DNA of 24,000 nucleotides from Desulfofalx alkaliphila DSM 12257 (GTDB lineage: Bacteria > Bacillota > Desulfotomaculia > Desulfotomaculales > Desulfohalotomaculaceae). Every line of letters starts with the position of its first letter. The stretch's first letter is position 1. Below, one piece after another: positions 5,569 through 24,000 of the stretch. The notes under the pieces are model-generated. The model had not been told where the DNA came from, made no database searches, and was given only the letters and a program-made list of their open reading frames with translations. The stretch covers positions 1 through 24,000 of the forward strand of contig NZ_JONT01000020.1 of NCBI RefSeq assembly GCF_000711975.1, read 5' to 3'. The position numbers were made by a program, and so were the translations under genes.

Positions 5569-5581
5569 TATTACACCCCCC

Positions 5582-8746: not shown

Positions 8747-8774
8747 TACTAAAGTATTGATCCAATGGCAACAA

Positions 8775-8808
8775 GTTATGAAATATTATATTTGAAATAT
8801 TTCATAAC
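8775..8808. promoter_or_regulatory. Operator palindrome 2 (putative TetR site): GTTATGAAATAT-N10-ATATTTCATAAC
   Basis: A perfect 12-bp inverted repeat with the same half-site and the same 10-nt spacer as palindrome 1, 60 nt away. Confidence 0.7.
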
Positions 8809-8840
8809 TAATAGTATTCTAAAGGGGGAGGGGAAGAATC

Positions 8841-9443
8841 TTGAATGGATTTGAGCGACGCAGGGAAAGAAAAAAGGAAAGCATTCGCCAGGCAGCAGTG
8901 GACCTATTTACTAAGTTTGGTGAGAAAAGCGTCAGCGTTGCTAAAATTGCTAAAAAGGCAAAGGTGTCGCAAGTAACCATATACAACTATTTTGGCAGTA
9001 AAGAAAATCTCTACTATGAAGCAATTGAGTTATTCTTAGATAAAGTTTTGCAAGATATTAAAGAATTGCTGGAAAGTGATTTGCCTTACCCTCAAAAAAT
9101 AGAACAACTTGTTTTTGAAAGTATTAAATATGAGCGCACCATTAGCCCGGAATTCATTAAATCACTAAATATAAAAGAACCGACAATTACCGGAATTGTG
9201 GAGAACTTTGCTAACAATAGGTATATTCCATTATTGCTGAACTTTATTGAACAGGGTAAAGTTGAAGGTTATGTGAACAAGGAAATTTCCGCAGAAGCCA
9301 TATTGCTCTATATAAGAGCATTTAAACTCTTAAAAGAATCAGAGATACTTACCGATTATGAAAACAAAAAACATTTATCCAAGGAATTAATGGAATTATT
9401 TTTCTATGGCCTCATGGGAAGTCCAAAAAACTCGCCAACTTGA
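8841..9443 (+). CDS. TetR/AcrR-family transcriptional regulator
   Basis: The N-terminal helix-turn-helix is IRQAAVDLFTKFGEKSVSVAKIAKKAKVSQVTIYNYFGSKENLY. A TTG start lies 7 nt after GGGGGAGGGG. The gene is divergent from the efflux operon. Confidence 0.9.
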   Translation: MNGFERRRERKKESIRQAAVDLFTKFGEKSVSVAKIAKKAKVSQVTIYNYFGSKENLYYEAIELFLDKVLQDIKELLESDLPYPQKIEQLVFESIKYERTISPEFIKSLNIKEPTITGIVENFANNRYIPLLLNFIEQGKVEGYVNKEISAEAILLYIRAFKLLKESEILTDYENKKHLSKELMELFFYGLMGSPKNSPT

Positions 9444-9459
9444 TAATTGGCGAGTTTTT
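9431..9459 (+). terminator. Rho-independent terminator of the TetR gene
   Basis: ctcgccaa (9431-9438) pairs with ttggcgag (9447-9454), followed by ttttt. The structure overlaps the stop codon. Confidence 0.8.
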
Positions 9460-9545
9460 CTAATGCAAATAATTGAGTGCTTAACATAAAGCGGCGGCGC
9501 TTTTAATAAACAATATAAGGACCTTAGTTGGGGAGGAATAGAAAA

Positions 9546-11093
9546 ATGACTAAAGTTTTGGTGGGAAGTGCTGTCCGTCAAAGGCCGGCAATTTTAAAGG
9601 CTTTTTTAACCTCATTAATTAACCTTGATAAGTCGGGCTTAATTGTTGATTATGTTTTTGTAAACGACAATGATGTTGTTGAATCGGAAAACATATTAAC
9701 TAAGTTTTCGGTTCCTAAAGGCAAGGTTACTATTTTCAATGGAGAGAGGTATGGTACCTATTATTGTGACAGCAACACCCACCGGTGGATGGATGGGCTG
9801 ATTTGGAAGGTTGCCGAATATAAAGACAAAATTATAAGTTATGCCAGGGAAAAGGGCTATGCTTATCTTTTTCTGATTGATTCCGATATTGTCTTACATC
9901 CCCAAACGCTGCTTCATTTAATAAATTGCAAAAAGGATATTATATCCGAAATTTTTTGGACCAAATGGCAGCCGGACCTGCCGTCCCTTCCACAGGTTTG
10001 GGTCTCTGATAAATACACCTTATATTACAAACAAAAAAGTGAAAGTCTTACAAAGGAAGAGATAAAAAGTAGAACAGTGGGTTTTTTACACTGCCTTAAA
10101 ATACCGGGGGTCTATGAAGTTGGCGGTTTGGGTGCCTGTACACTGTTAAGCAAAAAGGCATTGAGGGCAAAGGTCGGTTTTAAAGAAATTCCTAATCTGT
10201 CCTTCTGGGGGGAAGACCGGCACTTTTGCATTCGTGCAGCAGCCTTAGGATTTAAGCTGTATGTGGATACCTGTTATCCTGCCTATCATATTTACAGGGA
10301 AGAAGACTTGGCCGGGGTTGAATCTTTCCTTGATGAAAGCCGTAGAAACCCGGTGGTTTATCAAAAAGACAGCTTTCTGCGAACCAATACAAAGGCGCAA
10401 AACAATAAATTAACCCTTTCTATGCTGGTGAGAAATGAAGCCCAAAGGTATCTAAAGGAAGTGTTAGAAAATGCCCTGCAGTATATTGATGAAGCTGTAA
10501 TTTTAGACGACGCCAGCGATGATAACACAGTGGAGGTGTGTAAAGAGGTATTAAAAGAAATTCCCTTGACTATAATTTCCAATGATCAGCAAAAGTATCC
10601 AGACGAGCTATCCCTAAGAAAACAACTGTGGGATTTAACCCTGTCCACCGGTCCCGATTGGATTTTAACCTTAGATGCCGATGAAGTTTTTGAAGACTTG
10701 GCTAAAGAAGAGATGAAAAAATTAATAAACCAACCGTACTACGATTACTACGCCTTTCGACTCTATGACATGTGGGATGAAAACCATTATCGGGAAGATA
10801 AATATTGGCAGGCACATTTTCATTACCGGCCCTTCCTGCTAAGATACCAACCAAACTTTCAGTATATTTGGCGGAAGACACCTATCCACTGTAGGTTTCC
10901 TGTAAATATCCACCACTTGCCCGGAGCCATCAGCAGACTAAGATTAAAGCATTTGGGCTGGGCAGACCCCAAATATAGAGCAGAGAAGTATCATAGGTAT
11001 ATGAAATATGATCCCCAGGGTAAATACGGGGTAATGGAGCAGTATCAGTCAATATTAGACCCAAACCCGCGCTTAATAAGGTGGGAAGAATAA
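9546..11093 (+). CDS. Two-domain glycosyltransferase: an N-terminal GT-A-like domain with a DSD motif plus a C-terminal GT2 domain with LDADE
   Basis: The ATG at 9546 lies 9 nt after GGGGAGG. Domain 1 has VFVNDNDV...LFLIDSDIVL...GEDRHFC. Domain 2 has LSMLVRNEAQRYL...AVILDDASDDNT...ILTLDADEVF. Confidence 0.8.
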   Translation: MTKVLVGSAVRQRPAILKAFLTSLINLDKSGLIVDYVFVNDNDVVESENILTKFSVPKGKVTIFNGERYGTYYCDSNTHRWMDGLIWKVAEYKDKIISYAREKGYAYLFLIDSDIVLHPQTLLHLINCKKDIISEIFWTKWQPDLPSLPQVWVSDKYTLYYKQKSESLTKEEIKSRTVGFLHCLKIPGVYEVGGLGACTLLSKKALRAKVGFKEIPNLSFWGEDRHFCIRAAALGFKLYVDTCYPAYHIYREEDLAGVESFLDESRRNPVVYQKDSFLRTNTKAQNNKLTLSMLVRNEAQRYLKEVLENALQYIDEAVILDDASDDNTVEVCKEVLKEIPLTIISNDQQKYPDELSLRKQLWDLTLSTGPDWILTLDADEVFEDLAKEEMKKLINQPYYDYYAFRLYDMWDENHYREDKYWQAHFHYRPFLLRYQPNFQYIWRKTPIHCRFPVNIHHLPGAISRLRLKHLGWADPKYRAEKYHRYMKYDPQGKYGVMEQYQSILDPNPRLIRWEE

Positions 11094-11118
11094 AGAAGGA
11101 GTATCAACATTAGGTTAA

Positions 11119-12723
11119 TTACCCATGAAGGTCCCGTTTGTTATAGCCTATAAAGCCAATCACTGAAAATGCCAGCGCAATTGCAGTTAGTACTGACATA
11201 CTTGTGTAATTTATATCTTCAATTGGTACTTGGGGAATATGACCGAAGGGTGATATGTTAGTCACCCAATGGGGGAGTTGAAGTAAGCTGCCCAAATATG
11301 TTCCGAAAAATGAATATGCTAAATATAACCAAACTAGATCTGCTATTCTCGGCACAAGGCCAATAAGAAATACTGCAATACCGATACTTACCCACATGGC
11401 CGGCAGATAAACCACGGCGGCACTGAACATAGTGGCAAAGGGAATTGGGTTATCCATTGCTGCTGTTCCGGCAAGCCACAGGCCCAGTACAGCCAGCAAC
11501 AATAAAAAGAAACTTGCGGTAAAGGAAATAGAAAAATAACTTCCCATCATACGGCTGCGGGAAACTGCCCGGGTTAACAAATGTTCTGTAAGATTTCTTT
11601 TTTCTTCTCCCCTGAGCTTTAAAAGCGTCATAACAACCGGAATGGTACAAATAATAGCAATGGTTGACATCAAAAGTGATAAAAATTGTTCTGTTACTGA
11701 AAAACCTTCTACAGGTGCAATTAGCTTTCGCATCATTTGGTTTTTTCCAATGAAGGTTTCTAAATCACCCAATACAGATCCATATGAAATTCCTAAAAGA
11801 AATAAACCGATTGCCCAGGCAATTATTGCTGTGCGCTGAAGTTTTAATGCCAGGCCAAGGGGACTTTGTAAAAAGGCAGAGGCATTTTTTCTTCCTGGTT
11901 TTGCCGGTAAAAATCCGGCACCTAAATCACGGCTTTTATTTAAATAAAGGGCTGTCGAGAAAAAGATCAATGCAATAACTGTGGTTAATAATACTGGCCA
12001 CCAGTAATTATTTACATACACTTCAGTACGTAATATCCAACCCAGTGGTGACAACCATGAAAGAGCTTCTACGCTGACATCTCCGATGGCACGAATAAGA
12101 TAAGCCATCCCCAACAGCGCCAAGGAAAAACCAATGGTGCCTTGGGAACTCTCTGAAAGCTGGGCAAACAATGCCGTTGTTGAGGCGAAAAAGCTCCCTA
12201 TTGCAGCCAATGTAACTGCATATAAAATTGAACCTTCTAAATCTATACTTTCAATACCAAGTAGAAGCAGTCCGAAAGCTATTAATAGGGCTAACAAAAC
12301 ATTTGTTCCAAATACAAATAAGCCGGTGGCGGTTAAATTAGATAAACGCCCAAGGTTAAGGGAGCGCAGCATCTCCAGGCGACCATTCTCTTCATCTTCC
12401 CGTGTATGACGTGTAACAAATAAAATATTCATAATGGATACGGCTATGGAAGTGAAAAGCAGCATTTGATGAGCCATCATTGCCCCTATTGTATAATTAT
12501 CTATCCCGTATACAGGGCCGACCATGGCAATCATGGCTGGGTTAAGCATGGTTTCTGCTATTGCCTGCCTTTCTTGCTCTGTTGCATATAAGCCGCTGAA
12601 GGCAGAAGCAGTAATTACGGTAATTAGAGTTACAAGGAATAGCCAAAGGGGAAAAGGGATGCGGTCCCGGCGTACAATGAAATGCACAAGTGTTACTGTG
12701 TTATGAAATAATTGTTTCGACAC
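11119..12723 (-). CDS. ABC-2-type exporter permease, about 12 TM helices (resembles the 'putative exporter of polyketide antibiotics' class)
   Basis: 534 aa and highly hydrophobic throughout. The GTG start lies immediately after the ATPase stop, with GGAG/GGGGG upstream. Confidence 0.8.
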   Translation of the reverse strand: MSKQLFHNTVTLVHFIVRRDRIPFPLWLFLVTLITVITASAFSGLYATEQERQAIAETMLNPAMIAMVGPVYGIDNYTIGAMMAHQMLLFTSIAVSIMNILFVTRHTREDEENGRLEMLRSLNLGRLSNLTATGLFVFGTNVLLALLIAFGLLLLGIESIDLEGSILYAVTLAAIGSFFASTTALFAQLSESSQGTIGFSLALLGMAYLIRAIGDVSVEALSWLSPLGWILRTEVYVNNYWWPVLLTTVIALIFFSTALYLNKSRDLGAGFLPAKPGRKNASAFLQSPLGLALKLQRTAIIAWAIGLFLLGISYGSVLGDLETFIGKNQMMRKLIAPVEGFSVTEQFLSLLMSTIAIICTIPVVMTLLKLRGEEKRNLTEHLLTRAVSRSRMMGSYFSISFTASFFLLLLAVLGLWLAGTAAMDNPIPFATMFSAAVVYLPAMWVSIGIAVFLIGLVPRIADLVWLYLAYSFFGTYLGSLLQLPHWVTNISPFGHIPQVPIEDINYTSMSVLTAIALAFSVIGFIGYNKRDLHG

Positions 12724-13617
12724 CTATGATATACCCCCAACTCCTTTATAATGGCGCATAAATAAATCTTCCAAGGTGGGCGGTGCACTTTCTAATTTGA
12801 CAATTTCGAATTGACTTAAGTACTTCATAACGCCACTTAACTCTTCTGTATCCACCTGAAAGGAAAGGACCTGGCCCTTTTCTTCAATATTATGAACACC
12901 CTTTAATTCTTTTAAAGATTTTATTGGCTGCTTTGTCTCTACAAGCATACTGGTTCTTGTTAAATGACGCAGTTCATCTAAAGTACCTGTTTCAATAATT
13001 TGCCCCCGGCGGATGATGCCAACTTTATCACACAGGCGCTCAATTTCAGATAAAATGTGACTGGAAAGCAGCACACTTTTTCCCGCCATTCTAGCTTCCA
13101 TTACGCATTCTTGAAAGACCCTTTCCATTAGGGGATCAAGGCCTGAGGTCGGTTCATCTAAAATATAAAGATCAGCATCCGGTGCAAAGGCTGCAATAAG
13201 GGCAACTTTTTGCCGATTGCCCTTTGAATAGGTTTTGCATTTTTTGGATGGATCTAAGTTAAATTTTTCAATGAGTTCCTCCCGGCGATTTTTATTATTG
13301 GAACCGCGCAGTTTTATAAATAAATCGATTACTTCACCGCCGGTAAGGTTGGGCCATAGATTTACATCGCCGGGCACATATGCAATCCTTTTATGAATTT
13401 CCACTGCATCGTGCCAGGCGTCCTTGCCAAATACTCTGGCTTCACCTTCACTGGCTTTTAAAAGACCTAATAATATTCTGATTGTGGTAGATTTTCCTGC
13501 CCCGTTTGGACCTATAAAGCCGTAAATTTCCCCTTTGCTCACTTCTATGTTAACCCTATCTAAGGCAGTAAAATTGCCAAATCTTTTTGTTAAGTTAATT
13601 GTTTTCAGAACCGCCAT
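12724..13617 (-). CDS. ABC transporter ATP-binding protein (ABC-2/DrrA-like)
   Basis: Walker A GPNGAGKST, signature YSKGNRQKV, Walker B LYILDEPTSGLD and H-loop SSHIL are present, plus a C-terminal accessory domain. Confidence 0.95.
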   Translation of the reverse strand: MAVLKTINLTKRFGNFTALDRVNIEVSKGEIYGFIGPNGAGKSTTIRILLGLLKASEGEARVFGKDAWHDAVEIHKRIAYVPGDVNLWPNLTGGEVIDLFIKLRGSNNKNRREELIEKFNLDPSKKCKTYSKGNRQKVALIAAFAPDADLYILDEPTSGLDPLMERVFQECVMEARMAGKSVLLSSHILSEIERLCDKVGIIRRGQIIETGTLDELRHLTRTSMLVETKQPIKSLKELKGVHNIEEKGQVLSFQVDTEELSGVMKYLSQFEIVKLESAPPTLEDLFMRHYKGVGGIS

Positions 13618-13753: not shown

Positions 13754-13780
13754 ACGTTTGTGGAAGGGATTCATAAATTA
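13754..13780 (+). promoter_or_regulatory. Candidate SigK-type (late mother-cell) promoter: AC-N16-CATAaatTA
   Basis: AC (13754-13755), a 16-nt spacer, then CATAAATTA (13772-13780), 33 nt upstream of the ATG at 13813. This matches the Bacillus SigK consensus AC-N16/17-CATAnnnTA. It is a short motif in AT-rich DNA. Confidence 0.35.
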
Positions 13781-13812
13781 TAATAAATAACTGTGTAAAG
13801 GTGTTATATAAA

Positions 13813-14694
13813 ATGAAAAAATATATTATTCCGGCAGAAAGGGATACATTCATAGTAACCCGCGAGAAGGAATATACCGCATGTCATTCGCCTTATTTAC
13901 TTGTTGGGGCAGCGGGCCGTCAAAAGTTTTACTCATATATATATTTTAGGCTCTCTTCTATTCCATCCAGACTTTCGATTATATCTGCCAAGTTAAATCT
14001 ATATTTTGATGTTCCACCATATAAAGGCAGGCCCCCTTCTTCGCTAATTCTAAAGTTATTAAAGGACGGGTTTTGTGATTGTAAAACTAAATATTTTAAT
14101 CGACCGAACTTATTGGCGGAACCACAAAAAAATGTACCTATTCCCAAGGACTTTTCTATGGTTAGCATTGATGTCACTGATATTATTAATAAATGGCGGT
14201 TAAATGGGGCTGAAAATATAGGATTTGCATTGTTACCGGATAGGTGCCATAGCAATGGAGTAATTGTCATTAACAGTATAGATGGTATTGATGATTCCTT
14301 GGTTCCAAGCCTCACAGTAGATACCATCGATCCGGGCCTTGGTTTAATATGCCGAGCCGATAATTTTAAAGAGAAGAGGCTTGTGACTGTGGAAGAAAAG
14401 CATAGCAGCACCAGGGAGGTGTGGCATTATTCAATTTTTAGTTATATAGTAAAAAACATTGGTACAAAGAAAGTAATAATTCAGTTACAAAACAGTCCAG
14501 ACGGTATAAATTTTATTGACGAAGAACCGGCCTTTTTATTAAAGCCGGGTCAGACAGACATTTTCGTAAATACCTTTTTTGCGAGATTCGGCAGACTAAA
14601 ATATAAACTGTCACCGGGCGAGGATGGATTAGGGAAAATTAAAATTTGGCTACAGGGCAAGGGTAACACTTTTACCCTCGGAAACATAGGCTAA
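13813..14694 (+). CDS. Uncharacterised two-domain protein: an N-terminal DNRLRE-like beta-sandwich domain and a C-terminal ~80-aa domain shared with the next gene; no signal peptide
   Basis: The N-terminal pattern ERDTFIV...YLLVG...YSYIYFRLSSIP...ISAKLNLY...YFNRPNL...SIDVTDIINKW...ENIGFAL...PSLTV fits the DNRLRE-domain pattern as I remember it. I prefer the ATG at 13813 (AAAGGTG upstream) to the GTG at 13801. Confidence 0.75.
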   Translation: MKKYIIPAERDTFIVTREKEYTACHSPYLLVGAAGRQKFYSYIYFRLSSIPSRLSIISAKLNLYFDVPPYKGRPPSSLILKLLKDGFCDCKTKYFNRPNLLAEPQKNVPIPKDFSMVSIDVTDIINKWRLNGAENIGFALLPDRCHSNGVIVINSIDGIDDSLVPSLTVDTIDPGLGLICRADNFKEKRLVTVEEKHSSTREVWHYSIFSYIVKNIGTKKVIIQLQNSPDGINFIDEEPAFLLKPGQTDIFVNTFFARFGRLKYKLSPGEDGLGKIKIWLQGKGNTFTLGNIG

Positions 14695-14724
14695 TATTAC
14701 CAAAATATGGGGGAGGTTAAAATA

Positions 14725-15492
14725 ATGCCTAATTTTTCAGTATTTAATTTTGACCCAGATAGGCTAAGGGTTAAAATCTTTGGTTCAGAGGATGTGCCAA
14801 TTAAAACTGACAGCGACGGTAATTTAGATATTCGCGATTTAAGTGAAGCTCAAGATTCCATACTAATCTATGGTTTTGACGGCACCGAAAATGTGGCCAT
14901 CAGAACAGATGATGAGGGCCGCTTGGATATTCGTGGTTTAAGTGAAGCTCAAGATTCCATACTAATCTATGGTTTTGACGGCACCGAAAATGTGGCCATC
15001 AGAACAGATGATGAGGGCCGCTTGGATATTCGTGGTTTAAGTGAAGCCCGGGATTCCATACTAATTTATGGTTTTGACGGCAATGAAAACGTGGCCATCA
15101 AAACAGATGAAGAGGGTCGGTTGGAAATAGCCGGTATTTCGGAACCCATAACTGCAATTACCACACCTAATTTTAATGAGGAAGTATACACAGAGGTGGT
15201 AACTGCTGATGACTTTACCGGTTTAGAATATGAGGATACTGCCACTCAAACGGTGTATAGCTACTTTGTTTATAACAGCGGAGACAATGATGCAGAAGTA
15301 AGGTTGGATGTAAGTGCCAACGGGGCTGACAATATATATTTCATTGACGTGGAACCAAGGGTGATTGCATCGGGCGAAACTGACGTTTTTGTACCAAACA
15401 CCTTTTTGCGTTATACCCGCTTATCTTACCGATCTGCCAATGCCGATGAGGACACAACTTTGGATATTTACTTTCAGACGCAGTCCAGTTAA
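14725..15492 (+). CDS. Uncharacterised repeat protein: four 33-aa repeats (one degenerate N-terminal repeat, three full) plus the shared C-terminal domain; no signal peptide
   Basis: The ATG at 14725 is preceded by GGGGGAGG. The repeat unit is LDIRGLSEAQDSILIYGFDGTENVAIRTDDEGR. The C-terminus, VYSYFVYNSG...YFIDVEP...GETDVFVPNTFLRYTRLSY...IYFQTQ, is paralogous to 14413-14661. Confidence 0.8.
   Translation: MPNFSVFNFDPDRLRVKIFGSEDVPIKTDSDGNLDIRDLSEAQDSILIYGFDGTENVAIRTDDEGRLDIRGLSEAQDSILIYGFDGTENVAIRTDDEGRLDIRGLSEARDSILIYGFDGNENVAIKTDEEGRLEIAGISEPITAITTPNFNEEVYTEVVTADDFTGLEYEDTATQTVYSYFVYNSGDNDAEVRLDVSANGADNIYFIDVEPRVIASGETDVFVPNTFLRYTRLSYRSANADEDTTLDIYFQTQSS
14824..15141 (+). repeat. 99-bp in-frame tandem repeat, 3.2 copies (14824-14922, 14923-15021, 15022-15120, partial to 15141), with a more degenerate copy at 14767-14823
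   Basis: Copies 1 and 2 differ at only 3 nt, all within their first 15 nt. A 111-nt block recurs perfectly at an offset of 99 nt. Copy 3 has about 10 substitutions. Confidence 0.95.
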
Positions 15493-15503
15493 ATACGAAT
15501 ACC

Positions 15504-15531
15504 AAAAGGGGAGCCAGAGGCCCCCTTTTTT
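15504..15531 (+). terminator. Rho-independent terminator after the two structural-protein genes
   Basis: aaaaggggagcc aga ggccccc tttttt: a stem with one bulged A, followed by T6. Confidence 0.75.
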
Positions 15532-15635
15532 AGTGGCAATTAGCTATACTATGGCCGCCACAAATGTAAGGTGGCGCAGCCGGTATTTTTAACGCAACTC
15601 TGTTGATAAGCATATTATAGGGAGAGGTGATAAAG

Positions 15636-17636
15636 TTGGTTAAAGGTGCTTCCCTTAGTCTGTGTATGATCGTCAAAAATGAAGAGCACTATTTAAAAAG
15701 GTGCTTGTCCAGTGCCAAAGAACTGGTTGACGAAATAATAATCGTTGACACGGGGTCAACCGATGGGACCTTAGAGATAGCTAATAATTTTGGCCACAAG
15801 GTTGCAAAAGTTCCCTGGGCAAATGACTTTAGCCTGGCCAGAAACCATTCATTAGATCTGGCCACTTGCGAATGGATTATCTATTTAGATGCAGATGAAG
15901 AGTTGGTAATTGACGATAAAGATAAATTTAAGGAGCTATTAAGGAGAAAAGATGTTGAAGGTTATTTTTTTAATATTATTAACTTTACTTCCGATACACC
16001 GGGTGGCCAGAGAATAAAACATACTAATTTACGATTATTTAAAAACAGGCCCCAATATCGTTTTAAAGGGGCCTTACATGAGCAAATTATTCCTTCTATA
16101 CTGGAGTTTAATCCAAATGCAAAATTGCTTGGTACCGATATTACTATAATTCACCATGGTTATAAAAATAAAGATATAGAGCTTAAAGACAAAAATACTC
16201 GTAATTTAAACATCCTAAAAAACCAGTTGAATAAAGATGCTGAAAATGTGTTCTTGCGTTACAATTTTGCAGTTTCACTTTTGAGAAACAAGCAGCTGGA
16301 AGAAGCGATAAACGAATTTGAAAAGATTTACAAGAAATTAGATTTGAAAGCCGGTTATACACCAACGGTGTTCAGAAATTATGCTGTATGCCTTTTAGAA
16401 AGGAACCTTCCTCAGCGGGCTTTGGAAGTTTTAGATGACGGAATAAGGCTGTTTCCCGATTACACTGATCTTCATTACCTGAAAGGTCAATGCCTAGAAA
16501 AGCTAAACAGAATAACGATGGCACAAAAATGCTACCTTCGTTGCCTGGAGATTGGTGAAGCCAACAGCAAGTATGTATCCACTGAGGGAATCGGGGGTTT
16601 TTGCCCGCTGCGCAATTTGGGAAACATGATGAAAAAAAGCGGTCATCATCAGTTGGCACTAATGTATTATCAAAGGGCTTATCAGAGCAATCCTGAGCAC
16701 CGGCAAACCTTGTTTGACTTGGGGCAGGCATTGAAAAAGGTGTTAAAAGAGCCGTTGAAGATAAGGGCATATATTAAGGACAAAATTAAAGTAACCAATA
16801 TTGAACAATTGATAAATTTGGCGGAATTGCTATATTCCGTTGACGATTATGATGGTTGTATCACTTACCTTAATGAAGCAATAATTAAAGGTGGAATTAA
16901 ATCCCCCCGGCTAACCATGTTAAAGGGAAGATGTTTGTCCCAATTGGGCAGGTGGGATGATGCCCGGCTGCAGTATCTTGAAATAGACTTAGAAAACCCA
17001 CTAATAAAAGATGCTGTGATTGAAAGCTGCCTGTGCTGTTGGTTGGCTGAGCCCATAAAAAATGCCGCTCAAATAATAGATAAGCTAAAAATAAAGGATA
17101 ACCTGACATACAGTTTTTTAAATGCCATCAATAATAATTTAATTCATCAAGAAAAAGAAAAAATCCAAGTAATGAACCCTGAAATTACCGAAAAAATAAT
17201 TGCTAAACTTATAGAGTATAGGCAGGGCGAAATGGCTAAAAAAATCATATTACTATTAGATGATTATTCTGAAGGTGAAGTTTTATATCATATTGGCAAA
17301 GCATTGTTTAACCAAAAAATCTATTTAGAGGCATCCAATTACCTATTGGATGCCCTGTCAGCTGACATAAATCACCATGATTTATATTTCATGCTGGGCA
17401 GTATTTGTTTAAACAGAAGGGCTTTGTGGGAGGCGGAACAATTAATACAGCAAGCCATACAAATTAAAGCAGAGAGCCGGTATTATGAAAAATTAGTTGA
17501 AATATTGCTGGCTCAGGCATACGAAACTGCATTGGAAGCAGTGGCGGAGTTTCCTGAAAATAATACATTTAAAAAGATATTAAATGAAATTAAGAACTGC
17601 CAGCTGGAATATGAGGTTGTGAGGGGATCTTGTTGA
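15636..17636 (+). CDS. Glycosyltransferase family 2 domain fused to a long TPR-like helical-repeat region (the architecture seen in GmaR, and in SunS with its TPR-like C-terminal domains)
   Basis: The GT2 core is LSLCMIVKNEEHYLKRCL...DEIIIVDTGSTDGT...FSLARN...IIYLDADEEL...HEQI. About 450 aa of TPR-like helical repeats follow. A TTG at 15636 lies 8 nt after GGAGAGG; the ORF-track GTG at 15627 overlaps that ribosome-binding site. Confidence 0.9.
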   Translation: MVKGASLSLCMIVKNEEHYLKRCLSSAKELVDEIIIVDTGSTDGTLEIANNFGHKVAKVPWANDFSLARNHSLDLATCEWIIYLDADEELVIDDKDKFKELLRRKDVEGYFFNIINFTSDTPGGQRIKHTNLRLFKNRPQYRFKGALHEQIIPSILEFNPNAKLLGTDITIIHHGYKNKDIELKDKNTRNLNILKNQLNKDAENVFLRYNFAVSLLRNKQLEEAINEFEKIYKKLDLKAGYTPTVFRNYAVCLLERNLPQRALEVLDDGIRLFPDYTDLHYLKGQCLEKLNRITMAQKCYLRCLEIGEANSKYVSTEGIGGFCPLRNLGNMMKKSGHHQLALMYYQRAYQSNPEHRQTLFDLGQALKKVLKEPLKIRAYIKDKIKVTNIEQLINLAELLYSVDDYDGCITYLNEAIIKGGIKSPRLTMLKGRCLSQLGRWDDARLQYLEIDLENPLIKDAVIESCLCCWLAEPIKNAAQIIDKLKIKDNLTYSFLNAINNNLIHQEKEKIQVMNPEITEKIIAKLIEYRQGEMAKKIILLLDDYSEGEVLYHIGKALFNQKIYLEASNYLLDALSADINHHDLYFMLGSICLNRRALWEAEQLIQQAIQIKAESRYYEKLVEILLAQAYETALEAVAEFPENNTFKKILNEIKNCQLEYEVVRGSC

Positions 17637-20047
17637 AAAAACTTTCTATAAGTTTATGTATGATTGTTAAAAATGAAGAATTCTCTATTATTAGATGTCT
17701 AAATAGCATTAAAAATATTGCGGATGAAATCATTATTGTGGATACCGGTTCGGTGGATAATACCATAGAAATTGCCAAGGACTTTGGTGCAAAGGTCATC
17801 GAGCATCCTTGGCAAAACAATTTCAGTGATGCCAGAAACGTTAGCTTGGAGCATGCACACGGAGACTGGATATTGTTTTTAGATGCCGATGAAGAGGTGA
17901 TGGCTGAGGACCTACATAGATTTGAAATACTTGAATCCACTGATAGGGATGGCTTTTTTCTTGTAATACTAAATCTGGATGAAAAAGGCGGTCATACCAG
18001 ACAACAATCCCTGCGGTTATTTAAAAATCAGTGCGAATATCGTTTTCAGGGAGCTATCCATGAGCAGATAATGCAGTCAATTATAAATCATAACCCTTCA
18101 GCCAGATTCGGCAGTTTAAATATTAGAATAAAACACTACGGTTACTTAAATGAACAAGTCAGCAGACATAATAAAGTTTACCGAAATATAAGCATGTTGC
18201 AGCATGAACTCATTAAAGAAAAAAACAACGGCTTTTTGTATTTTAGTCTGGGGAATGAATACATGAGGATGGGTGATTATGCCAAGGCGTTACAGTATTA
18301 TAATATGGCCGAGAATTTTACCGCAGCAGAAGTAAGTTATGCTCCCTTATTGGGTAAAAAGAAAAGTCAAGCTTTAATTAATAGAAAACTATATCAAGAG
18401 GCCCTTGGGGTATTGAAAAATTATTTAAAAATATATCCCGATTATACTGATTTGCTGTTTTTAAAAGCGGGTGTATACTATAAGACCGGTCAACACCAAC
18501 AATCCCTTAGTTTATTTAAACGATGCCTACTGCTTGGAGAAGCACCTGCCTGTTATGTATCGGAAAGTGGAGTGGGAACATATAAAGCTGAACAGGCCAT
18601 AAGAAAGGTATCCGCTTCAATGAATAAAAGCGGAATAAGCCTGTGTATGATTGTTTTCAATGAGGAAAACAATCTACCAAGATGTTTAAACAGTGCAAAA
18701 GATGTGGTGGATGAGATCATTATTGTTGATACCGGGTCGACGGATAGCACTGTACAAATAGCCAATAATTTTGGGGCTAAAGTATATCATTTTGACTGGT
18801 CAGGGGATTTTGCCGAGGCGAGAAATTATTCGTTAAAGTTTGCCACCTGCCCGTGGGTTTTAGTTTTAGATGCCGATGAAATGCTGCGACCCTGTGAACA
18901 TCAGCGGTTGCGGGAAGCAGTTGGCGTTACAGGAACAACTATGGGTTATTATCTAAAAATAATTAACTATTTTGGCCGGGGTGATGCTGAACAATATGTG
19001 GTAGATGCCGTTTGCAGACTGTTTCGGAACAGTAAAGAATTCTCTTTTTCCGGCAGAATACATGAGGAAATTTCCCAATCAATAATTAGCAGGCATGGTT
19101 TGAAGTCAATATCTCCATTGGATGTGCATATTGATCACCGGGGTTATATAGAACAACCGGGATTGAATAATAAAAACCAAAGGAATATTGGTATTTTAAA
19201 AAAACAATTAAAACAAGATCCTGAAGATGCCTATGCTCTCTATGCATTGGGCACAGAATATTTTCAACAGGGTGATTATAACAATGCCCTTGTTCAATAT
19301 TATAAGGCCCTGAGGTTGATAGACGGCAAAGATGTCATGTCTGATCTATTTTTTAAGATTGCAGTGTGTCATTTAGAACTGAAAGAATACCAAAAAGGGT
19401 TACAAATTATTGAGCAAGGTCAGCAGTTATTTGCCCATTTCACCCCCCTGTGGTATCTTCAGGGATTGATTGAGTATAAGCAAAATCAATTAACCCAAGC
19501 TTGTAGAACCTGGGAAAAAACATTGTCAATGGGGGACCCTCCATGGCACCGCTATACCTTTCCCCATGGCATAGGTGGTTTTATCACTGCCGCGGCCCTG
19601 GGTGGTTGTTATGAGAAAATGGGTTTACTTGATAAAGCGGAAAGTTTGTTAGAAAAATATTTGATAAAAGGGAAGGGAGTAAGGGCGGTTACACCCATAT
19701 ATTGTCGAATTTTATTGAAGAAATACCAAGCTAATGAATGCCTGGCAAAACTTGAGAGGTTAAACTATCCCCGTTGTTTTAAGGAAAGCATTATTCTTGC
19801 CCGAGTTTTTAGTCAGTTAGATAATGTTGAATTAGAGCACATCTATTTTAGAAAATCTTTAGATCTGTTAAGAAATCAACCTAATCAAGGGGATTACTTA
19901 CAGTTAATAGCCCTCAAACTGAAGTCTATTGATAAGTATTGCGGCTATGGCATGAAATTAGGGGATCAATCCCCCCTCTTGTCAAGGTTAAAGAGCAAGC
20001 TTATCTCACTCCGAAAGGAGGATAACAAGAACATATGCCCAAAATAG
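17630..20047 (+). CDS. Tandem GT2-TPR-GT2-TPR glycosyltransferase (two complete catalytic modules in one 805-aa protein)
   Basis: Module 1 has ISLCMIVKNEE...IIIVDTGSVDNT...FSDARN...ILFLDADEEV. Module 2, from the in-frame ATG at 18620, has GISLCMIVFNEE...IIIVDTGSTDST...FAEARN...VLVLDADEML. Each module is followed by TPR-like repeats. The TTG start overlaps the upstream stop. Confidence 0.9.
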   Translation: MLKKLSISLCMIVKNEEFSIIRCLNSIKNIADEIIIVDTGSVDNTIEIAKDFGAKVIEHPWQNNFSDARNVSLEHAHGDWILFLDADEEVMAEDLHRFEILESTDRDGFFLVILNLDEKGGHTRQQSLRLFKNQCEYRFQGAIHEQIMQSIINHNPSARFGSLNIRIKHYGYLNEQVSRHNKVYRNISMLQHELIKEKNNGFLYFSLGNEYMRMGDYAKALQYYNMAENFTAAEVSYAPLLGKKKSQALINRKLYQEALGVLKNYLKIYPDYTDLLFLKAGVYYKTGQHQQSLSLFKRCLLLGEAPACYVSESGVGTYKAEQAIRKVSASMNKSGISLCMIVFNEENNLPRCLNSAKDVVDEIIIVDTGSTDSTVQIANNFGAKVYHFDWSGDFAEARNYSLKFATCPWVLVLDADEMLRPCEHQRLREAVGVTGTTMGYYLKIINYFGRGDAEQYVVDAVCRLFRNSKEFSFSGRIHEEISQSIISRHGLKSISPLDVHIDHRGYIEQPGLNNKNQRNIGILKKQLKQDPEDAYALYALGTEYFQQGDYNNALVQYYKALRLIDGKDVMSDLFFKIAVCHLELKEYQKGLQIIEQGQQLFAHFTPLWYLQGLIEYKQNQLTQACRTWEKTLSMGDPPWHRYTFPHGIGGFITAAALGGCYEKMGLLDKAESLLEKYLIKGKGVRAVTPIYCRILLKKYQANECLAKLERLNYPRCFKESIILARVFSQLDNVELEHIYFRKSLDLLRNQPNQGDYLQLIALKLKSIDKYCGYGMKLGDQSPLLSRLKSKLISLRKEDNKNICPK

Positions 20048-21327
20048 TTGGTATTATGGTGGCAAGGAGTCAGCAAGGCTGGCTGGGTGCTTGCTTACGC
20101 GAAGCAACAAAAATTTGCGATAAGATAATAATCATTGATGATAAGTCCACAGACAGAACGATTGAAATATATAAAGCATTTCCGAAGGTGGAATATCACT
20201 GCTATCACAGAAGGATAAGCAAAAAGACAGCTTATGTTAAATTAATTCATTTGGCTAAAAAAAATAATGCGGACTGGGTTTTACTTTTGGATGCCTATGA
20301 AATATTAGAAAAAAATGCTGCTGATGTCATTGGCCGTCTGGTTGCCAGAACAGATCCCAAAGAACCGGTATTCTTATTTTACTACTTAAGATTACTGTAT
20401 TTTTGGCAAGATGCCGAATATTATATCAGCAATGGCCCTTATGCTAATAACTGGGCCCCTAGGCTGTTTACCACCTGGGGGGACGGTTGGAAACTGTTGA
20501 CAAACTGGAATTGGGAAGCCCATAGCACCGGAAAACCACTTCCGCCGCCGGAAGAATACAAAAACTATGGAAAAAGGATAAATGTTTGTATAAAAAACTA
20601 TCATTTTTTTGACGGTAATTTGGGCAATATTTTTCAGAACGGTCCTCAGTTGGTTAAATGGAAAGACAGAAAGAATATTCAATGGCAGTGCTGCCAGGGT
20701 GAGGAAACAATAAACAACTTAAAATATATTAATGAAACCATAAAAATGGTACCGCCCGGTGCCATGAAACTATTGGATGTAGGCTGTGGTCAAGGTGACT
20801 TAGGAGAGATGTTAAAACAGCAGGACCACCGAAGAGAAGTGATTGGTATAGAAAGAGATGAGATGATTGCCTGTATGGCAATGAACAAATATGATTATGT
20901 TATTGTGGGGGATATGGATAATGCAAGCTTAGAATTCCCTGTGGGTTATTTTGACTGCGTAATAGTGCAGAATATGTTAGAAAAAGCAACAGCTCCTTTG
21001 GATGTTCTTTTATATGTAAAAAAGTTTCTACATGACAGTGGTAGTCTTATTCTCAAATGTAAGAATGCAAGGAACATTAATATCATAAATGAACTGGTAA
21101 ATGAAGGGGTATGTGGCTGGGCAAATGAAAGACTTTTCACCTTAAGGGCTATAAAAGAAATGGTTTCTAGGTCTAAAATGAAAATAGAAGAGATACACCA
21201 TATACCCAATGAGGAAAAGAAGATGGCCAATATTGCACTGGGTAATTTATCTTCTCAACAGTTAAAAGAATTAGAAACCGAGTGCTTTATTATTAAAATA
21301 ATTAAGGAAAAGAAAAAGCTATCATAA
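20035..21327 (+). CDS. GT-A/GT2-like domain (degenerate DxD, reading DAY) fused to a class I SAM-dependent methyltransferase
   Basis: The N-terminus has IIIIDDKSTDRT...WVLLLDAYEIL. The C-terminus has LLDVGCGQGDLGEML (motif I) ...FDCVIVQNMLEK...GSLILKC. The start overlaps the upstream gene by 13 nt, and an AGGAGG lies at 20017-20022. Confidence 0.85.
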   Translation: MPKIVGIMVARSQQGWLGACLREATKICDKIIIIDDKSTDRTIEIYKAFPKVEYHCYHRRISKKTAYVKLIHLAKKNNADWVLLLDAYEILEKNAADVIGRLVARTDPKEPVFLFYYLRLLYFWQDAEYYISNGPYANNWAPRLFTTWGDGWKLLTNWNWEAHSTGKPLPPPEEYKNYGKRINVCIKNYHFFDGNLGNIFQNGPQLVKWKDRKNIQWQCCQGEETINNLKYINETIKMVPPGAMKLLDVGCGQGDLGEMLKQQDHRREVIGIERDEMIACMAMNKYDYVIVGDMDNASLEFPVGYFDCVIVQNMLEKATAPLDVLLYVKKFLHDSGSLILKCKNARNINIINELVNEGVCGWANERLFTLRAIKEMVSRSKMKIEEIHHIPNEEKKMANIALGNLSSQQLKELETECFIIKIIKEKKKLS

Positions 21328-21341
21328 AAGATAGCTTTTTT
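21313..21341. terminator. Bidirectional terminator between convergent genes
   Basis: aaaaagctatc ataaaa gatagctttttt: an A5 run, a 6-bp stem and a T6 run, symmetric on both strands. Confidence 0.7.
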
Positions 21342-21344: not shown

Positions 21345-21827
21345 TTATTGGGCGGAACTGGCTGTATTCTTTTTGCGGTATACAATTAACTTAACTTTAA
21401 GAACTACCTTAACAATAAGATTAGCTTTTTGGCCGGCGATTTTAGATGAGGTATCAGCGGGAATGCCCACTATGGTAATGGCCTTAATTTTACTCTGTTC
21501 TTTGACCTCATCGCCCGGGCGTATGTTATCTAATTTTTGTACTGACTGAATGGGAACGACAACTTCTTTGATGAGACCCCCTTTTGCATCGGGGCAGTGG
21601 GCGGAGTTCTGCAGTTTAAAAAGTAGTTTTAGTTTAATAAATCCTTCATTAATAAGCAGATTCTTTTTTATTATGGGAGTTAATACAGGATCACCCACGG
21701 GCTTGCTCTCTACCGGCACTAATAAATCGCCGGTTTTTGGGTCAATTTCTACCCCTATGGGTGCAGGAATGGTGGTTTCGCCAACTTTAATAAACTCTTT
21801 TTTAGCAACTATAAAATCACTGCTCAT
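21345..21827 (-). CDS. Hypothetical 160-aa beta-rich protein with no signal peptide; possibly SPOCS/DUF3794-like (spore-coat-associated fold)
   Basis: A good ribosome-binding site (AAGGAGAG) precedes the ATG. The alternating hydrophobic pattern (LLINEGFIKLKLLF..., IKEVVVPIQSVQKLDNIRPGDEV..., ANLIVKVVLKVKLIVY) recalls DUF3794-type domains. That assignment is from memory only. Confidence 0.6.
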   Translation of the reverse strand: MSSDFIVAKKEFIKVGETTIPAPIGVEIDPKTGDLLVPVESKPVGDPVLTPIIKKNLLINEGFIKLKLLFKLQNSAHCPDAKGGLIKEVVVPIQSVQKLDNIRPGDEVKEQSKIKAITIVGIPADTSSKIAGQKANLIVKVVLKVKLIVYRKKNTASSAQ

Positions 21828-21934: not shown

Positions 21935-23125
21935 CTATTTGCGAAAAACACCCAACATCCCACTGTCCAAAAGATAACTCTGATGAGGTTGGTAAACAAG
22001 TGTCTTTGGTCTTTTGTTTTTTACCGGGCTCTTATTATATAAATATTTAGCATACTCTAATATGTTTAGATAAGACTTAACAATTGCATCTCTTTCAGTG
22101 GTATTATAAAAAGATACCTTTTTAGAACAGGAATTACACTCAATAAACCATAAACGACCCTTTTTATCTAGGCCAACATCTATGCCAATTTCAGCGGTTG
22201 GGCCATATGCTTTTTCGATACTTTTATATGCCGTAAACAAAAGTTTTTGCAGCCGGCTTTCTAGTTCTTTAAATCTGGCTTCAGAGTATTTTAAAGTATT
22301 CTGAAAAAATGCTTTAAAAGGATAACTGTTAGCATGGGTAGTAATGGGATGGTTTTTATGGCCCACTCGAACTGAAATTCCGGCCACTGTTAATTCCCCA
22401 TTGCCATTTTTTTGCACTTCTGCACGCAAGTCTATGATTTTATTGTCTATCGTTAACAAATCAATTGCCTGTTGAATTAAAAATTCCTTATTTTGAAAGA
22501 ATCCTTTAATTTCACTAATAAGTTTATTAAAACCATCTACTTTAACAAGGTACATTTCATTATTAAATCTGCTGTACTCATACCTTTCTTCACCTAGTTG
22601 TTTAAGGCGGATAACCTGTTTTCCTCGACCGCCTTCACAACCTTTCAAATAGACGGTATTGTGTAGTTCAAGCATTTTTTTTAAATCCCTAGAACTTTTA
22701 TAAATAACTGATAGGGGTAGGTATTGACGCATGCTCTCAATTTTTAATAGTTTTTCGTATACTTTATATTTATTAAAACCAACTTGGTAATTTAAGGGGA
22801 TAATATTCTTATCCTTAAATTGTTTTTTGCCGCTTTTTCCCATTCTATATATTAAATCGGGGTAGGCAAATATTTTTTTTACCCAAAGATTTTTGTTAAC
22901 ATCATAATAAATTCCTAAAATTCTTTTATTTCTATAATCAATGCTTTTGCTGGCAAACAAAAATAATATTAGTTTTGCTTGCTTGTTTGCCTCAATAAGT
23001 TCTGCAGCCTTCCAAGGGAGAATTTGCTCTTGATATAGCTTTTTAAAATATTTATTGCTTACAAATACCCCCAAGGTGGGGGTATTGTTGGTTTTATTAA
23101 TCAGCAAAAGAGTTCCTCCTTTCAT
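21935..23125 (-). CDS. YheC/YheD-family ATP-grasp protein (family of B. subtilis endospore-coat-associated YheC/YheD)
   Basis: The ATP-grasp core is VYLKGCEGGRGKQVIRLKQ...LIQQAIDL...DLRAEVQKNGNGELTVAGISVRVG...ITTH...EIGIDVGLDKKGRLWFIECNS. The ATG overlaps the upstream stop (ATGA). An alternative TTG at 23107 follows AGGAGG. Confidence 0.8.
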   Translation of the reverse strand: MKGGTLLLINKTNNTPTLGVFVSNKYFKKLYQEQILPWKAAELIEANKQAKLILFLFASKSIDYRNKRILGIYYDVNKNLWVKKIFAYPDLIYRMGKSGKKQFKDKNIIPLNYQVGFNKYKVYEKLLKIESMRQYLPLSVIYKSSRDLKKMLELHNTVYLKGCEGGRGKQVIRLKQLGEERYEYSRFNNEMYLVKVDGFNKLISEIKGFFQNKEFLIQQAIDLLTIDNKIIDLRAEVQKNGNGELTVAGISVRVGHKNHPITTHANSYPFKAFFQNTLKYSEARFKELESRLQKLLFTAYKSIEKAYGPTAEIGIDVGLDKKGRLWFIECNSCSKKVSFYNTTERDAIVKSYLNILEYAKYLYNKSPVKNKRPKTLVYQPHQSYLLDSGMLGVFRK

Positions 23126-24000
23126 TTGCCGTTATTAGCATTACTGTCTATTCTCTCAGTAGTCCTGGAATATTGATGCTTTAAGTGCTTAACGACCTTA
23201 TCCAATTGCGTTACCCGAGAACCTTTTATTAAGATAATAGTGTTAGGCCGTATATATTTATCCACAAATTCGTATAAAAGAGTTTCATTGTCGCAATGAA
23301 TAATGTGCTTTGAGTTAAAACCGTTACCAATTGCACCTTGGCCAATATATTCTGCATTTTTTTTATAAGTGACAAGATAGTCAATTTGTTTATTAGCTAA
23401 GTATTTACCTACTTCTAGATGTCCTGTTTTAGAATATTCTCCTAACTCTGCCATTGTACCTAAAACAGCAACCTTTGTTTTTTCTTTCCCTAATTCAGAT
23501 AACACATCTATGGCTGCTTTCACCGATTGGGGATTGGCATTAAAGCTATCATCAATAAGTAAAACATTTTCTGACAGCCGGATTAGGTTCAGTCTACCCT
23601 TTGGTATTTTCATTCTTTTAAAACCTTCATTAATGTCAAGTGGAGTAAGATTAAGGTGGTGGGCAATGGCAATGGCAAATAAGGCATTAATGACATTATG
23701 GTGTCCAAAAACAGGGATAAAAAATGTTTCCTCTTGATTGTCAATCTTAACTTTAAAGCTCATTCCATTATTTCGATATTCTACGCAGTAGGCTTGAAAA
23801 TCAGAAATACTTTTAATGCCCACCCTTATAACTTTACCTTTGAACTGTTCAACCGGCAGCAGCTTTGAATTATCATCATCGTTGTTAATAAGCAGTATCC
23901 CAGTTGGCTTCATATATTCAATAAGTGCAGATTTGGACTTAACAATATCTTCAATACTGTTTCCCAGCTTTCCGTAATGGGCGGTGCCAATACTGGTGAT
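23122..24000 (-). CDS. MurF-like Mur-ligase family protein (its N-terminal part lies beyond the window end)
   Basis: The reading frame stays open to position 24000 (...ITSIGTAHYGKLGNSIEDIVKSKSALIEYMKPTGILLINNDD...). MurF-type motifs are GHHNVINALFAIAIA, LIDDSFNANPQSVKAAIDVL, AVLGTMAELGEYS..H and ILIKGSR. Confidence 0.9.
   Translation of the reverse strand: MTSIGTAHYGKLGNSIEDIVKSKSALIEYMKPTGILLINNDDDNSKLLPVEQFKGKVIRVGIKSISDFQAYCVEYRNNGMSFKVKIDNQEETFFIPVFGHHNVINALFAIAIAHHLNLTPLDINEGFKRMKIPKGRLNLIRLSENVLLIDDSFNANPQSVKAAIDVLSELGKEKTKVAVLGTMAELGEYSKTGHLEVGKYLANKQIDYLVTYKKNAEYIGQGAIGNGFNSKHIIHCDNETLLYEFVDKYIRPNTIILIKGSRVTQLDKVVKHLKHQYSRTTERIDSNANNGK

Follow-up and report, generated by a model that had tools for sequence, protein, structure and literature searches.

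The window analyzed here is a 24-kb stretch (24,000 nucleotides) of contig NZ_JONT01000020.1 of Desulfofalx alkaliphila DSM 12257, a spore former of the Desulfotomaculum group. Five genes in one orientation make up a cluster at positions 13754-21341: two encode structural proteins that end in the same domain, DUF6385 (Pfam PF19912), two encode family 2 glycosyltransferases (GT2) followed by tetratricopeptide repeats (TPRs), and the last encodes a GT-like domain fused to an S-adenosylmethionine (SAM)-dependent methyltransferase (Table 1). A sequence-only reading of this stretch had proposed a direct protein-glycosylation module, possibly for the spore surface. That idea, although unproven, appears well supported by the comparative data. 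With moderate confidence, we regard the cluster as a sporulation module of the mother cell, under sigma-K-type control, which would supply the spore surface with a glycosylated structural element and involve no membrane step.

The two structural genes are co-oriented, and their products lack signal peptides and transmembrane helices (maximal 19-residue Kyte-Doolittle means of 1.11 and 0.54); each product is 100% identical to a deposited Desulfofalx alkaliphila protein. The two genes are followed by a terminator-like hairpin, which the scan picked up on the complementary strand. The three downstream genes are coupled: the stop codon of the first (15627/15636-17636) overlaps the TTG start at 17630 of the next, whose own stop overlaps the ATG at 20035. 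The hairpin closing the operon could serve both convergent genes. The gene order agrees with the sequence-only reading, and so do the genes that are missing: no priming transferase is matched anywhere in the window, nor any flippase or nucleotide-sugar enzyme.

Table 1. Coordinates of the features in the window and in related loci.
Locus	Feature	Coordinates	Strand	Details
Window	Sigma-K-type motif 1, AC-N16-CATAAATTA	13754..13780	+	Ends 33 nt before protein 1 start
Window	Protein 1, 293 aa	13813..14694	+	N-terminal DNRLRE/CBM96-like beta-sandwich, C-terminal DUF6385 jellyroll
Window	Sigma-K-type motif 2, AC-N17-CATAGGCTA	14666..14693	+	Within 3' end of gene 1, 32 nt before protein 2 ATG
Window	Protein 2, 255 aa	14725..15492	+	N-terminal MPNFSVFNFDPDRLRVKIFG motif, three 33-residue repeats, C-terminal DUF6385 jellyroll
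Window	Three tandem 99-nt repeats	14827..15125	+	The 33-residue units of protein 2; TRF period 99, 3.0 copies, 93% matches
Window	Terminator-like hairpin and T-run	15504..15531	+	GGGGAGCC-AGA-GGCCCCC then TTTTTT; GC-rich; 3' of both structural genes
Window	Sigma-K-type motif 3, AC-N17-CATATTATA	15592..15619	+	17 nt before TTG of first GT gene
Window	GT2-TPR protein, about 666-669 aa	15636..17636	+	One GmaR/SunS-like GT-A domain, then ~470 residues of TPR/helical repeats
Window	Double GT2-TPR protein, 805 aa	17630..20047	+	Two GmaR/SunS-like GT-A domains (about 1-200, 330-530), TPRs after each
Window	GT-like domain fused to SAM-dependent methyltransferase, 430 aa	20035..21327	+	Pfam Glyco_tranf_2_4 8.7e-08, MetW 2.1e-11
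Window	Operon-closing hairpin	21313..21340	.	AAAAAGCTATC...GATAGCTTTTT
Window	Accessory protein with two GT-like domains	9546..11093	+	Pfam GT2 3.7e-15; C-half GT2 with DDASDD and DADE; outside the cluster
Window	Polytopic permease, 534 aa	11119-12723	-	No Pfam match; partner of the DrrA-like ATPase
Window	DrrA-like ATPase	12724-13617	-
Window	160-aa ORF	21345-21827	-	Convergent with the module
Window	YheC/D-type ATP-grasp gene	21935-23125	-	Overlaps the MurF-like ORF
Window	MurF-like ORF	23122-23913	-
Window	Two adjoining multi-domain redox proteins	1426-3346	+
L009	GCCGT element	9752-9785
L011	GCCGT element	9713-9746
L051	GCCGT element	8822-8855
L004	WWE pair	8236-8817, 8834-9367	-
L009	WWE pair	8514-9095
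L031	WWE pair	8407-9552
L087	748-aa GT-methyltransferase-GT fusion, then rmlA, rmlC, rmlB, rmlD	2760-8619		Directly upstream of the DUF6385 pair
L086	Weak DUF6385 relative, 275 aa	8001-8828		Amid phage head/morphogenesis genes (Mu F-like, capsid)
L085	YheC/D gene	15231-16577	-	8 kb from the module
L002	Three Caloramator genes behind the DUF6385 pair	10900-13409
L003	Three Caloramator genes behind the DUF6385 pair	8241-10723

Comparative evidence comes from the relatives of this cluster. One genome per prokaryotic species (185,579 species) was scanned with a 12-sequence DUF6385 alignment; 115 relatives were obtained and 80 loci kept. Profiles of the window proteins served to annotate these loci, and linkage was counted where at least 7 kb of downstream sequence was present. 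All 80 kept loci belong to endospore-forming Bacillota: Paenibacillus, Cohnella, Alicyclobacillus, Desulforamulus, Desulforadius, and several Bacillaceae (Bacillus methanolicus, B. benzoevorans, Neobacillus, Priestia). In 70 of the 72 loci counted, across Desulfotomaculia, Paenibacillaceae, Bacillaceae, and Alicyclobacillaceae, the DUF6385 genes are immediately followed by co-oriented GT2-TPR genes. The proposed link between the structural genes and the GT2-TPR genes therefore holds well beyond the window. The exact arrangement of two DUF6385 genes and three GT2-TPR genes recurs in 45 loci. Look-ups of metagenome and genome neighborhoods agree with this linkage. All these loci lie on chromosomes, and their synteny extends from family to family.

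The GT2 domains were expected to be of a protein-directed class, and their closest relatives, GmaR and SunS, indeed act on a protein or a peptide. GmaR is the best match among solved structures for all three domains, with SunS and a SunS-family enzyme next (1e-17 to 1e-25); the SunS structures 7msn/7msp match at E 1e-21 to 1e-24. The 669-aa protein has a single Pfam GT2 match (residues 11-143, E 2.1e-22), with TPRs after it, and its GT-A motifs DTGSTD, DADE, and HEQ are intact. It matches GmaR (22ao, E 4.4e-36) and the SunS-family enzyme 7msk (E 4.6e-25), residues 144-390 match the TPR part of GmaR (7x9r, E 5.3e-14), and both its length and its layout resemble those of full-length GmaR. In the 805-aa protein, the Pfam GT2 match (E 3.6e-48) falls in two stretches; the similarity to GmaR (E 7.7e-38) reaches the TPR fragment 7X9R, and SunS is matched at E 1.5e-24. 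This protein corresponds to two separate genes in relatives. Several Pfam TPR families lie behind each GT2 domain, and DADE and the other catalytic motifs are intact in three of three modules. Four GT2-TPR modules had been claimed, but three are found, one in the 669-aa and two in the 805-aa protein, and three is also the number conserved in relatives. A fourth GT2 core within the 669-aa protein was rejected, as this protein has one GT2 match and the remainder is helical TPR. GmaR itself comprises 637 residues, with a GT domain, TPRs, and a helical C-terminus, and its authors propose that the TPR recognizes the protein substrate (PMC9638930).

Two further enzymes accompany the three modules. 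The fusion of a GT-like domain to a SAM methyltransferase exists as described, with a degenerate GT-like part: in the alignment with the other three domains, DAYE replaces DxD and the HEQ block is lost. It is lineage-specific, occurring in L006 alone among loci L001-L084 and also in L087. The second enzyme, the two-domain GT2 protein upstream of the cluster, had been overlooked, although it is a member of the set conserved in relatives. Homologues of its C-terminal half occur in 50 of 84 loci and lie directly behind the GT2-TPR genes in L001, L005, and L006. Because genes of this type directly follow the GT2-TPR genes in the Desulforamulus/Desulforadius loci, we regard it as part of the module; in the window, the two are split by an unrelated DrrA-type ABC exporter on the opposite strand (11119-13617).

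An indication of the sugar comes from the metagenome contig L087, the closest relative of the module (proteins 61-65% identical). Its 748-aa fusion is an orthologue of the window's GT-methyltransferase protein, heads an rmlACBD operon, and has a sigma-K-type motif 69 nt ahead. The arrangement is similar to that of the bclA locus of B. anthracis/cereus, with its adjacent rhamnose (rmlACBD) operon. Given this operon and the resemblance to bclA, rhamnose, possibly O-methylated, is a plausible component of the glycan; O-methylated rhamnose as the product would be plausible by analogy.

The best named NCBIfam match of the GTs is the SunS family, and the upstream GT2 gene is separated from the module by a DrrA-like ABC-2 transporter. 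Both features would fit a classical envelope-polysaccharide locus or a glycocin locus (SunS-type, of the ribosomally synthesized and post-translationally modified peptides), with a lipid carrier or a small peptide as the acceptor and ABC export. However, the GTs score 113.2 and 172 bits against the SunS S-glycosyltransferase equivalog TIGR04195, far under its cut-off of 350, and the other parts of a glycocin cluster (a small precursor with Cys, a C39-peptidase exporter, thiol-disulfide oxidoreductases) are missing among the window open reading frames (ORFs). The DrrA-like ABC ATPase has no peptidase domain and is encoded on the opposite strand. Neither the window nor the annotated relatives have genes for a priming transferase, a flippase or ABC glycan exporter, or a polymerase, and no conserved polytopic membrane ORF lies in or beside the module in 84 loci, the DrrA-like transporter itself not having been searched there; the extra conserved genes of Cohnella encode soluble proteins. 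Orthologous clusters are thus not embedded in undecaprenyl phosphate polysaccharide loci, as the sequence-only reading required, and an identity as a polysaccharide or glycocin locus is hardly credible.

The domain common to both structural proteins is DUF6385, matched above the gathering score of 26.8 bits in protein 1 (E 1.1e-16, 61 bits) and in protein 2 (E 8.8e-30, 103 bits); all 22 aligned domains match the hidden Markov model of the family. The profile of the protein 2 family retrieves 1,559 representatives of 50%-identity clusters at E<=1e-3, 598 of them at E<=1e-10. The C-terminal domain of protein 2 models as a jellyroll (AlphaFold2 (AF2), Foldseek). In Foldseek, it matches PirA (7fcn) at E 1e-5 with a target-normalized TM-score (TMt) of 0.73, and the spore appendage subunits Ena2A, Ena1B, Ena3A, and Ena1C at E 5e-5 to 7e-4 (TMt 0.53-0.61). 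Many small virion proteins of tailed phages match the fold equally well, and no BclA or C1q chain is among the 50 matches listed for this domain. Against solved structures, the DUF6385 profile gives a marginal match, a phage cementing protein at E 0.075.

Protein 1 begins with a beta-sandwich (NCBIfam DNRLRE_dom, E 3.5e-16, 59.7 bits with a cut-off of 34; Pfam CBM96, E 4.8e-07). In the AF2 model (mean predicted local distance difference test score (pLDDT) 72.8), this domain has the fold of carbohydrate-binding modules (CBMs) of the CBM96 type: it matches the chondroitin sulfate binder 8wab (E 2.4e-07, TMt 0.72) and the alginate-binding CBM96 7vbo (E 2.2e-05, TMt ~0.72). The search of solved structures by sequence gave marginal matches only. 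The literature on DNRLRE concerns CBM96 and archaeal surface repeats, which are different from the present module. With such a fold, the N-terminal domain may bind glycan, instead of or besides carrying it. In the gene 1 orthologues of Paenibacillaceae and Alicyclobacillus, a strongly basic, Cys-rich N-terminus replaces the CBM96-like domain; the N-termini of the Paenibacillaceae orthologues are of a kind typical of coat proteins.

Protein 2 contains no Cys, and its three repeats are beta-type units of 33 residues. Its AF2 model, built with 19 homologues, is confident in the C-terminal domain only (pLDDT >90 for residues ~150-255). Orthologues in Paenibacillaceae, Bacillaceae, and Alicyclobacillus share the N-terminal peptide MPNFSTFNxNPDNLRTLIFG, the counterpart of MPNFSVFNFDPDRLRVKIFG in the window. 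The C-terminal knob is kept as well, with a Thr/Gly-rich repeat stalk in between. The repeats vary in number and type, the total length ranges from 198 to 869 aa, and the stalks are rich in Thr, Gly, and Leu and do not consist of GXX triplets. Protein 2 is proposed as the likely subunit of a fiber or nap and the likely main acceptor of glycosylation.

The 33-residue unit (LDIRDLS..DSILIYG.DG....I.TD..G.L) also recurs 6-12 times in P0036 (1391 aa), P0044 (1189 aa), and P0158 (2059 aa). These giant proteins (1,189-2,059 aa) carry no Pfam annotation and are uninformative on function; the unit appears to be an undescribed repeat family. A second observation concerns Paenibacillaceae, in which a divergently transcribed pair of paralogous proteins of about 177-197 aa, without a Pfam family, is found in 52 of 84 loci. 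Its members start with M(P/T)N..VFN, resembling the N-terminus of protein 2, and end in WWE; the pair is found neither in the window nor in Clostridia-class loci, and it may represent further components or substrates of the system.

These features also allow a different assignment of roles, in which the module is spore-associated, the acceptor of the GT2-TPR enzymes is another coat or crust protein or a primer, and the DUF6385 proteins are lectin-like glycan scaffolds. The N-terminal domain of protein 1, by its fold and by its Pfam and NCBIfam matches, resembles CBM96 modules that bind anionic polysaccharides, the strongly basic N-terminus of its Paenibacillaceae counterpart could bind polyanions, and the MPN...WWE pair could supply the actual acceptors. 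The tightest and widest linkage to the GT2-TPR genes is nevertheless that of the DUF6385 pair, and it includes the Clostridia-class loci, in which the WWE pair is absent. Moreover, the long Thr-rich stalks of the protein 2 orthologues resemble known O-glycosylated spore fibers, and in the precedents GmaR-flagellin, SgtA-BclA3, and SunS-SunA, the neighboring structural gene encodes the substrate. We consider this assignment unlikely and retain protein 2 as the candidate acceptor.

Motifs upstream of the genes point to sporulation. The strict sigma-K consensus AC-N16/17-CATAnnnTA was scored as a regular expression, so that the counts refer to motif matches and not to measured promoters. The window contains four matches, against an expected 1.5±1.3, and three of them are on the plus strand ahead of units of the module. 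The SigK-like promoter match noted earlier is strengthened in this way: the strict motif with an N16 spacer precedes protein 1, two more units have one, and motifs recur at equivalent genes in relatives. In L006, they precede the genes for protein 1, protein 2, the first GT, and the upstream-type GT; in L001, protein 2 and the first GT; in L005, the first GT and, in a TG variant, protein 1; and in L087, the GT-methyltransferase/rml operon, protein 2, and the first GT. The distance to the first GT gene is 17 nt in L087, 24 nt in L006, 52 nt in L005, and 53 nt in L001. Over five Clostridia-class loci, a motif stands ahead of 12 of 32 module genes and of 0 of 46 others (Fisher p=5.2e-6).

About 50 Paenibacillaceae loci share a different element, GCCGT-N20-CATAnnnT(A), which lies in a divergent intergenic region and precedes the first DUF6385 gene by 56-66 nt. 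Its -10 part is a CATA box of the sigma-E/sigma-K class; the invariant GCCGT could be an atypical -35 or the site of a regulator. The strict motif is present in 8 of 75 upstream regions, compared with 0.9% of control regions, and the sigma-E-type motif ATA-N16-18-CATA[CT]A in 0 of the 75. A sigma-D reading of the GCCGT element was rejected by eye, as there is no TAAA at the proper spacing.

The DUF6385 fold is common among small virion proteins of tailed phages, and a weak relative of the domain is encoded amid phage head genes in L086; together, these are a hint at a phage origin of DUF6385. The cementing protein, as a marginal match, goes in the same direction, and GmaR, the closest solved GT, serves flagellin. 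The cluster could accordingly be not specific to sporulation and glycosylate an intracellular or vegetative structure (a phage-derived particle, a decoration protein, or a filament that, like flagellin, is exported by a non-Sec route), the CATA boxes being coincidental. Against this stand the origin of all kept loci from endospore formers, out of all the species scanned, the enrichment of sigma-K-type motifs at module genes, and the absence of conserved phage, flagellar, or secretion genes in these chromosomal, syntenic loci. Such a function outside sporulation is decidedly improbable.

The principle of a glycoprotein on the spore surface that is served by its own soluble GT-TPR enzyme is already known from SgtA-BclA3 and the BclA system. 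The earlier statement that no characterized system has this composition thus overlooks SgtA of C. difficile, which O-GlcNAcylates the exosporium protein BclA3 (PMC7157674). SgtA (CD3350) has 358 aa, which comprise a GT-A domain and four TPRs. Its gene directly precedes bclA3, and in vitro the enzyme adds beta-O-GlcNAc to Thr/Ser of BclA3 (PMC7157674). Both systems combine a soluble GT-A/GT2-TPR enzyme with an adjacent gene for a repeat-containing structural protein, of the spore surface in the case of BclA3 (PMC7157674), and transfer from a UDP-sugar directly to Thr/Ser, with no lipid carrier, is proposed for the module as well. Mother-cell sigma factors control SgtA-BclA3 (PMC7157674; bioRxiv 10.1101/2021.06.21.449304); on the side of the module, it corresponds to motif matches. 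In contrast to BclA3 with its collagen-like GPT repeats, the module proteins have none and end in the DUF6385 jellyroll, and three GT2-TPR modules with accessory GT and methyltransferase genes take the place of one 358-aa enzyme. SgtA is likened to the module enzymes by its published description.

GmaR, the best structure match (E 4e-36 to 8e-38, continuing into the TPR), is similar in length to the 666-aa protein. It differs in that it modifies flagellin and has a second role as anti-repressor of MogR. Genes for flagella or a MogR-like protein are not linked to the module, and the neighbors and promoters of GmaR are unlike those of the module. SunS and the glycocin enzymes are homologous in the GT2 domain (E 1e-21 to 1e-25) and also recognize their substrate through a helical region at the C-terminus. 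They differ in that the module GTs stay below the family cut-off, in that genes for a precursor peptide, a dedicated exporter, and disulfide formation are missing from the window, and in that the probable substrates of the module are structural proteins of 250-870 aa.

The architecture of protein 2 is like that of BclA: an N-terminal targeting peptide, a variable repeat stalk, and a C-terminal beta-sandwich knob, with adjacent GT genes and sigma-K-type motifs, which for the module are motif matches. BclA glycans contain rhamnose-type sugars (summarized in PMC12357932). They also carry methylated sugars, to which the rmlA/C/B/D genes and the GT-methyltransferase gene upstream of the pair in L087 may be compared. 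Unlike BclA, the module lacks collagen-like GXX repeats and a triple helix, as well as a BclA-C/C1q-TNF-like domain, the window has no rml genes, and the module GTs are of the GmaR/SunS type.

The Ena1/2/3 (DUF3992) and F-ENA (DUF4183) subunits of the endospore appendages of the Bacillus cereus group are likewise small jellyroll proteins without signal peptides, encoded by tandem paralogous genes. Ena subunits are made in the mother cell, as is proposed for the module proteins, and some F-ENA fibers appear O-glycosylated, with a GT gene nearby (PMC12357932). The module proteins show no DUF3992 or DUF4183 sequence match, and those of the window lack an Ena-like N-terminal connector: Cys is absent from protein 2, and the N-terminus of protein 1 is taken up by the CBM96-like domain. 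Furthermore, Ena loci do not contain three GT2-TPR genes. The DUF6385 structural family, its constant GT2-TPR trio, and their wide distribution are not described in the literature searched.

The following scheme would account for these features. The DUF6385 jellyroll, of the fold class of Ena subunits and small phage virion proteins, may serve as the assembly or oligomerization domain. Protein 2 would be a nap or fiber protein of the BclA type minus the collagen, and protein 1 its partner or anchor, whose CBM96-like domain may hold the glycan or an underlying layer. In the mother-cell cytoplasm, the three GmaR/SunS/SgtA-like GT2-TPR modules would dock on their protein substrate with their TPR arms and, with soluble nucleotide sugars as donors, glycosylate Ser/Thr of protein 2 and perhaps of protein 1 directly. 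They could build a short glycan stepwise or act at separate sites, and accessory tailoring could fall to the methyltransferase fusion and to the two-domain GT2 protein encoded upstream. Since lysis of the mother cell exposes the product, a secretion signal would be unnecessary.

A protein acceptor glycosylated in the cytoplasm is suggested by the conserved adjacency of the DUF6385 genes and by the lack of lipid-linked machinery. More generally, it is from the domain identities, the folds, the gene linkage, the promoter motifs, and the phyletic restriction, all of them observed, that we infer the acceptor, the sugar, the localization on the spore, and the timing. As a more tentative extension, which we hold to be possible but doubtful, the DUF6385 proteins may constitute a third class of surface fibers or appendages of endospores, besides Ena/DUF3992 and F-ENA/DUF4183. 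The jellyrolls would then polymerize or trimerize, and the stalk of the protein 2 type would carry an O-glycan made in three steps. The three TPR-GTs would recognize their substrate by the conserved N-terminal MPNF... peptide, a docking signal similar to a leader and common to several of the proteins encoded at the locus. This class would be spread over Paenibacillaceae, some Bacillaceae, Alicyclobacillus, and Desulfotomaculia.

Several observations weigh against a glycosylated spore-surface element. As regards the promoters, motif 3 overlaps the ribosome-binding site, which makes its function uncertain, and the canonical AC at -35 is missing from most Paenibacillaceae promoters, so that their assignment to sigma-E/sigma-K is uncertain. 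The jellyroll matches are generic, as PirA and the phage proteins score at least as well as Ena. At Pfam E<=10, the 22 DUF6385 domains show no sequence link to DUF3992/DUF4183, nor to BclA-C; the likeness to Ena is therefore a lead at the level of the fold, not family membership. DUF6385 is not mentioned in the literature searched. The modeled CBM96-like fold of protein 1 suggests a binder of glycan rather than a carrier, and Ser and Thr make up just 15% of protein 2 in the window, far below the Paenibacillus stalks. Two Caloramator metagenome loci, the sole exceptions to the linkage, hold the DUF6385 pair without recognizable GT2 genes. Finally, the YheC/D neighbor is not conserved, being absent from L001-L084 and present in L085 only.

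In the two Caloramator loci, three genes (about 260-270, 300-340, and 219 aa) stand behind the DUF6385 pair. Their products do not match the GT/TPR queries from the window and give sub-threshold TPR hints only; the enzyme set may have been replaced here or have diverged strongly.

Among the neighbors of the module in the window, the sequence-only reading had taken a YheC/YheD gene and a possibly SPOCS-like gene as spore context. The YheC/D gene is real (E 4.4e-71), but as a conserved partner it fails (0/84 loci, with one further locus, L085). The SPOCS-like assignment is unsupported: the 160-aa ORF has no Pfam match even at E<=1 and no NCBIfam match. YheC/D, the MurF-like ORF, and the 160-aa ORF were all rejected as conserved partners of the module (0/84 loci). 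The MurF-like ORF starts inside the middle domain of Mur ligases (Pfam positions 114-200), with the N-terminal part missing; a ligase may have been truncated or split here, or the ORF may form a dedicated peptide-ligase pair with YheC/D. At the other end of the window, the first of the two redox proteins (252 aa) combines a rubredoxin domain with a rubrerythrin-type rubredoxin-like domain, and the second (394 aa) is a fusion of 4Fe-4S ferredoxin, rubredoxin-like, and rubrerythrin domains.

Spore surfaces govern adhesion, hydrophobicity, immune recognition, and dispersal. To our knowledge, the outermost spore layers are poorly characterized except in B. subtilis, C. difficile, and the B. cereus group. 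The module is conserved, compact, and apparently self-contained, and it is a candidate for the outer glycoprotein layer or fibers of Paenibacillus, Cohnella, the food spoiler Alicyclobacillus, and the sulfate-reducing Desulfotomaculia. It would give a testable function to DUF6385, an orphan family of about 1,560 cluster representatives, in carriers that can be cultivated. Three paralogous TPR-guided GTs on one substrate would also be a model for the specificity of cytoplasmic O-glycosylation and for the engineering of spore display.

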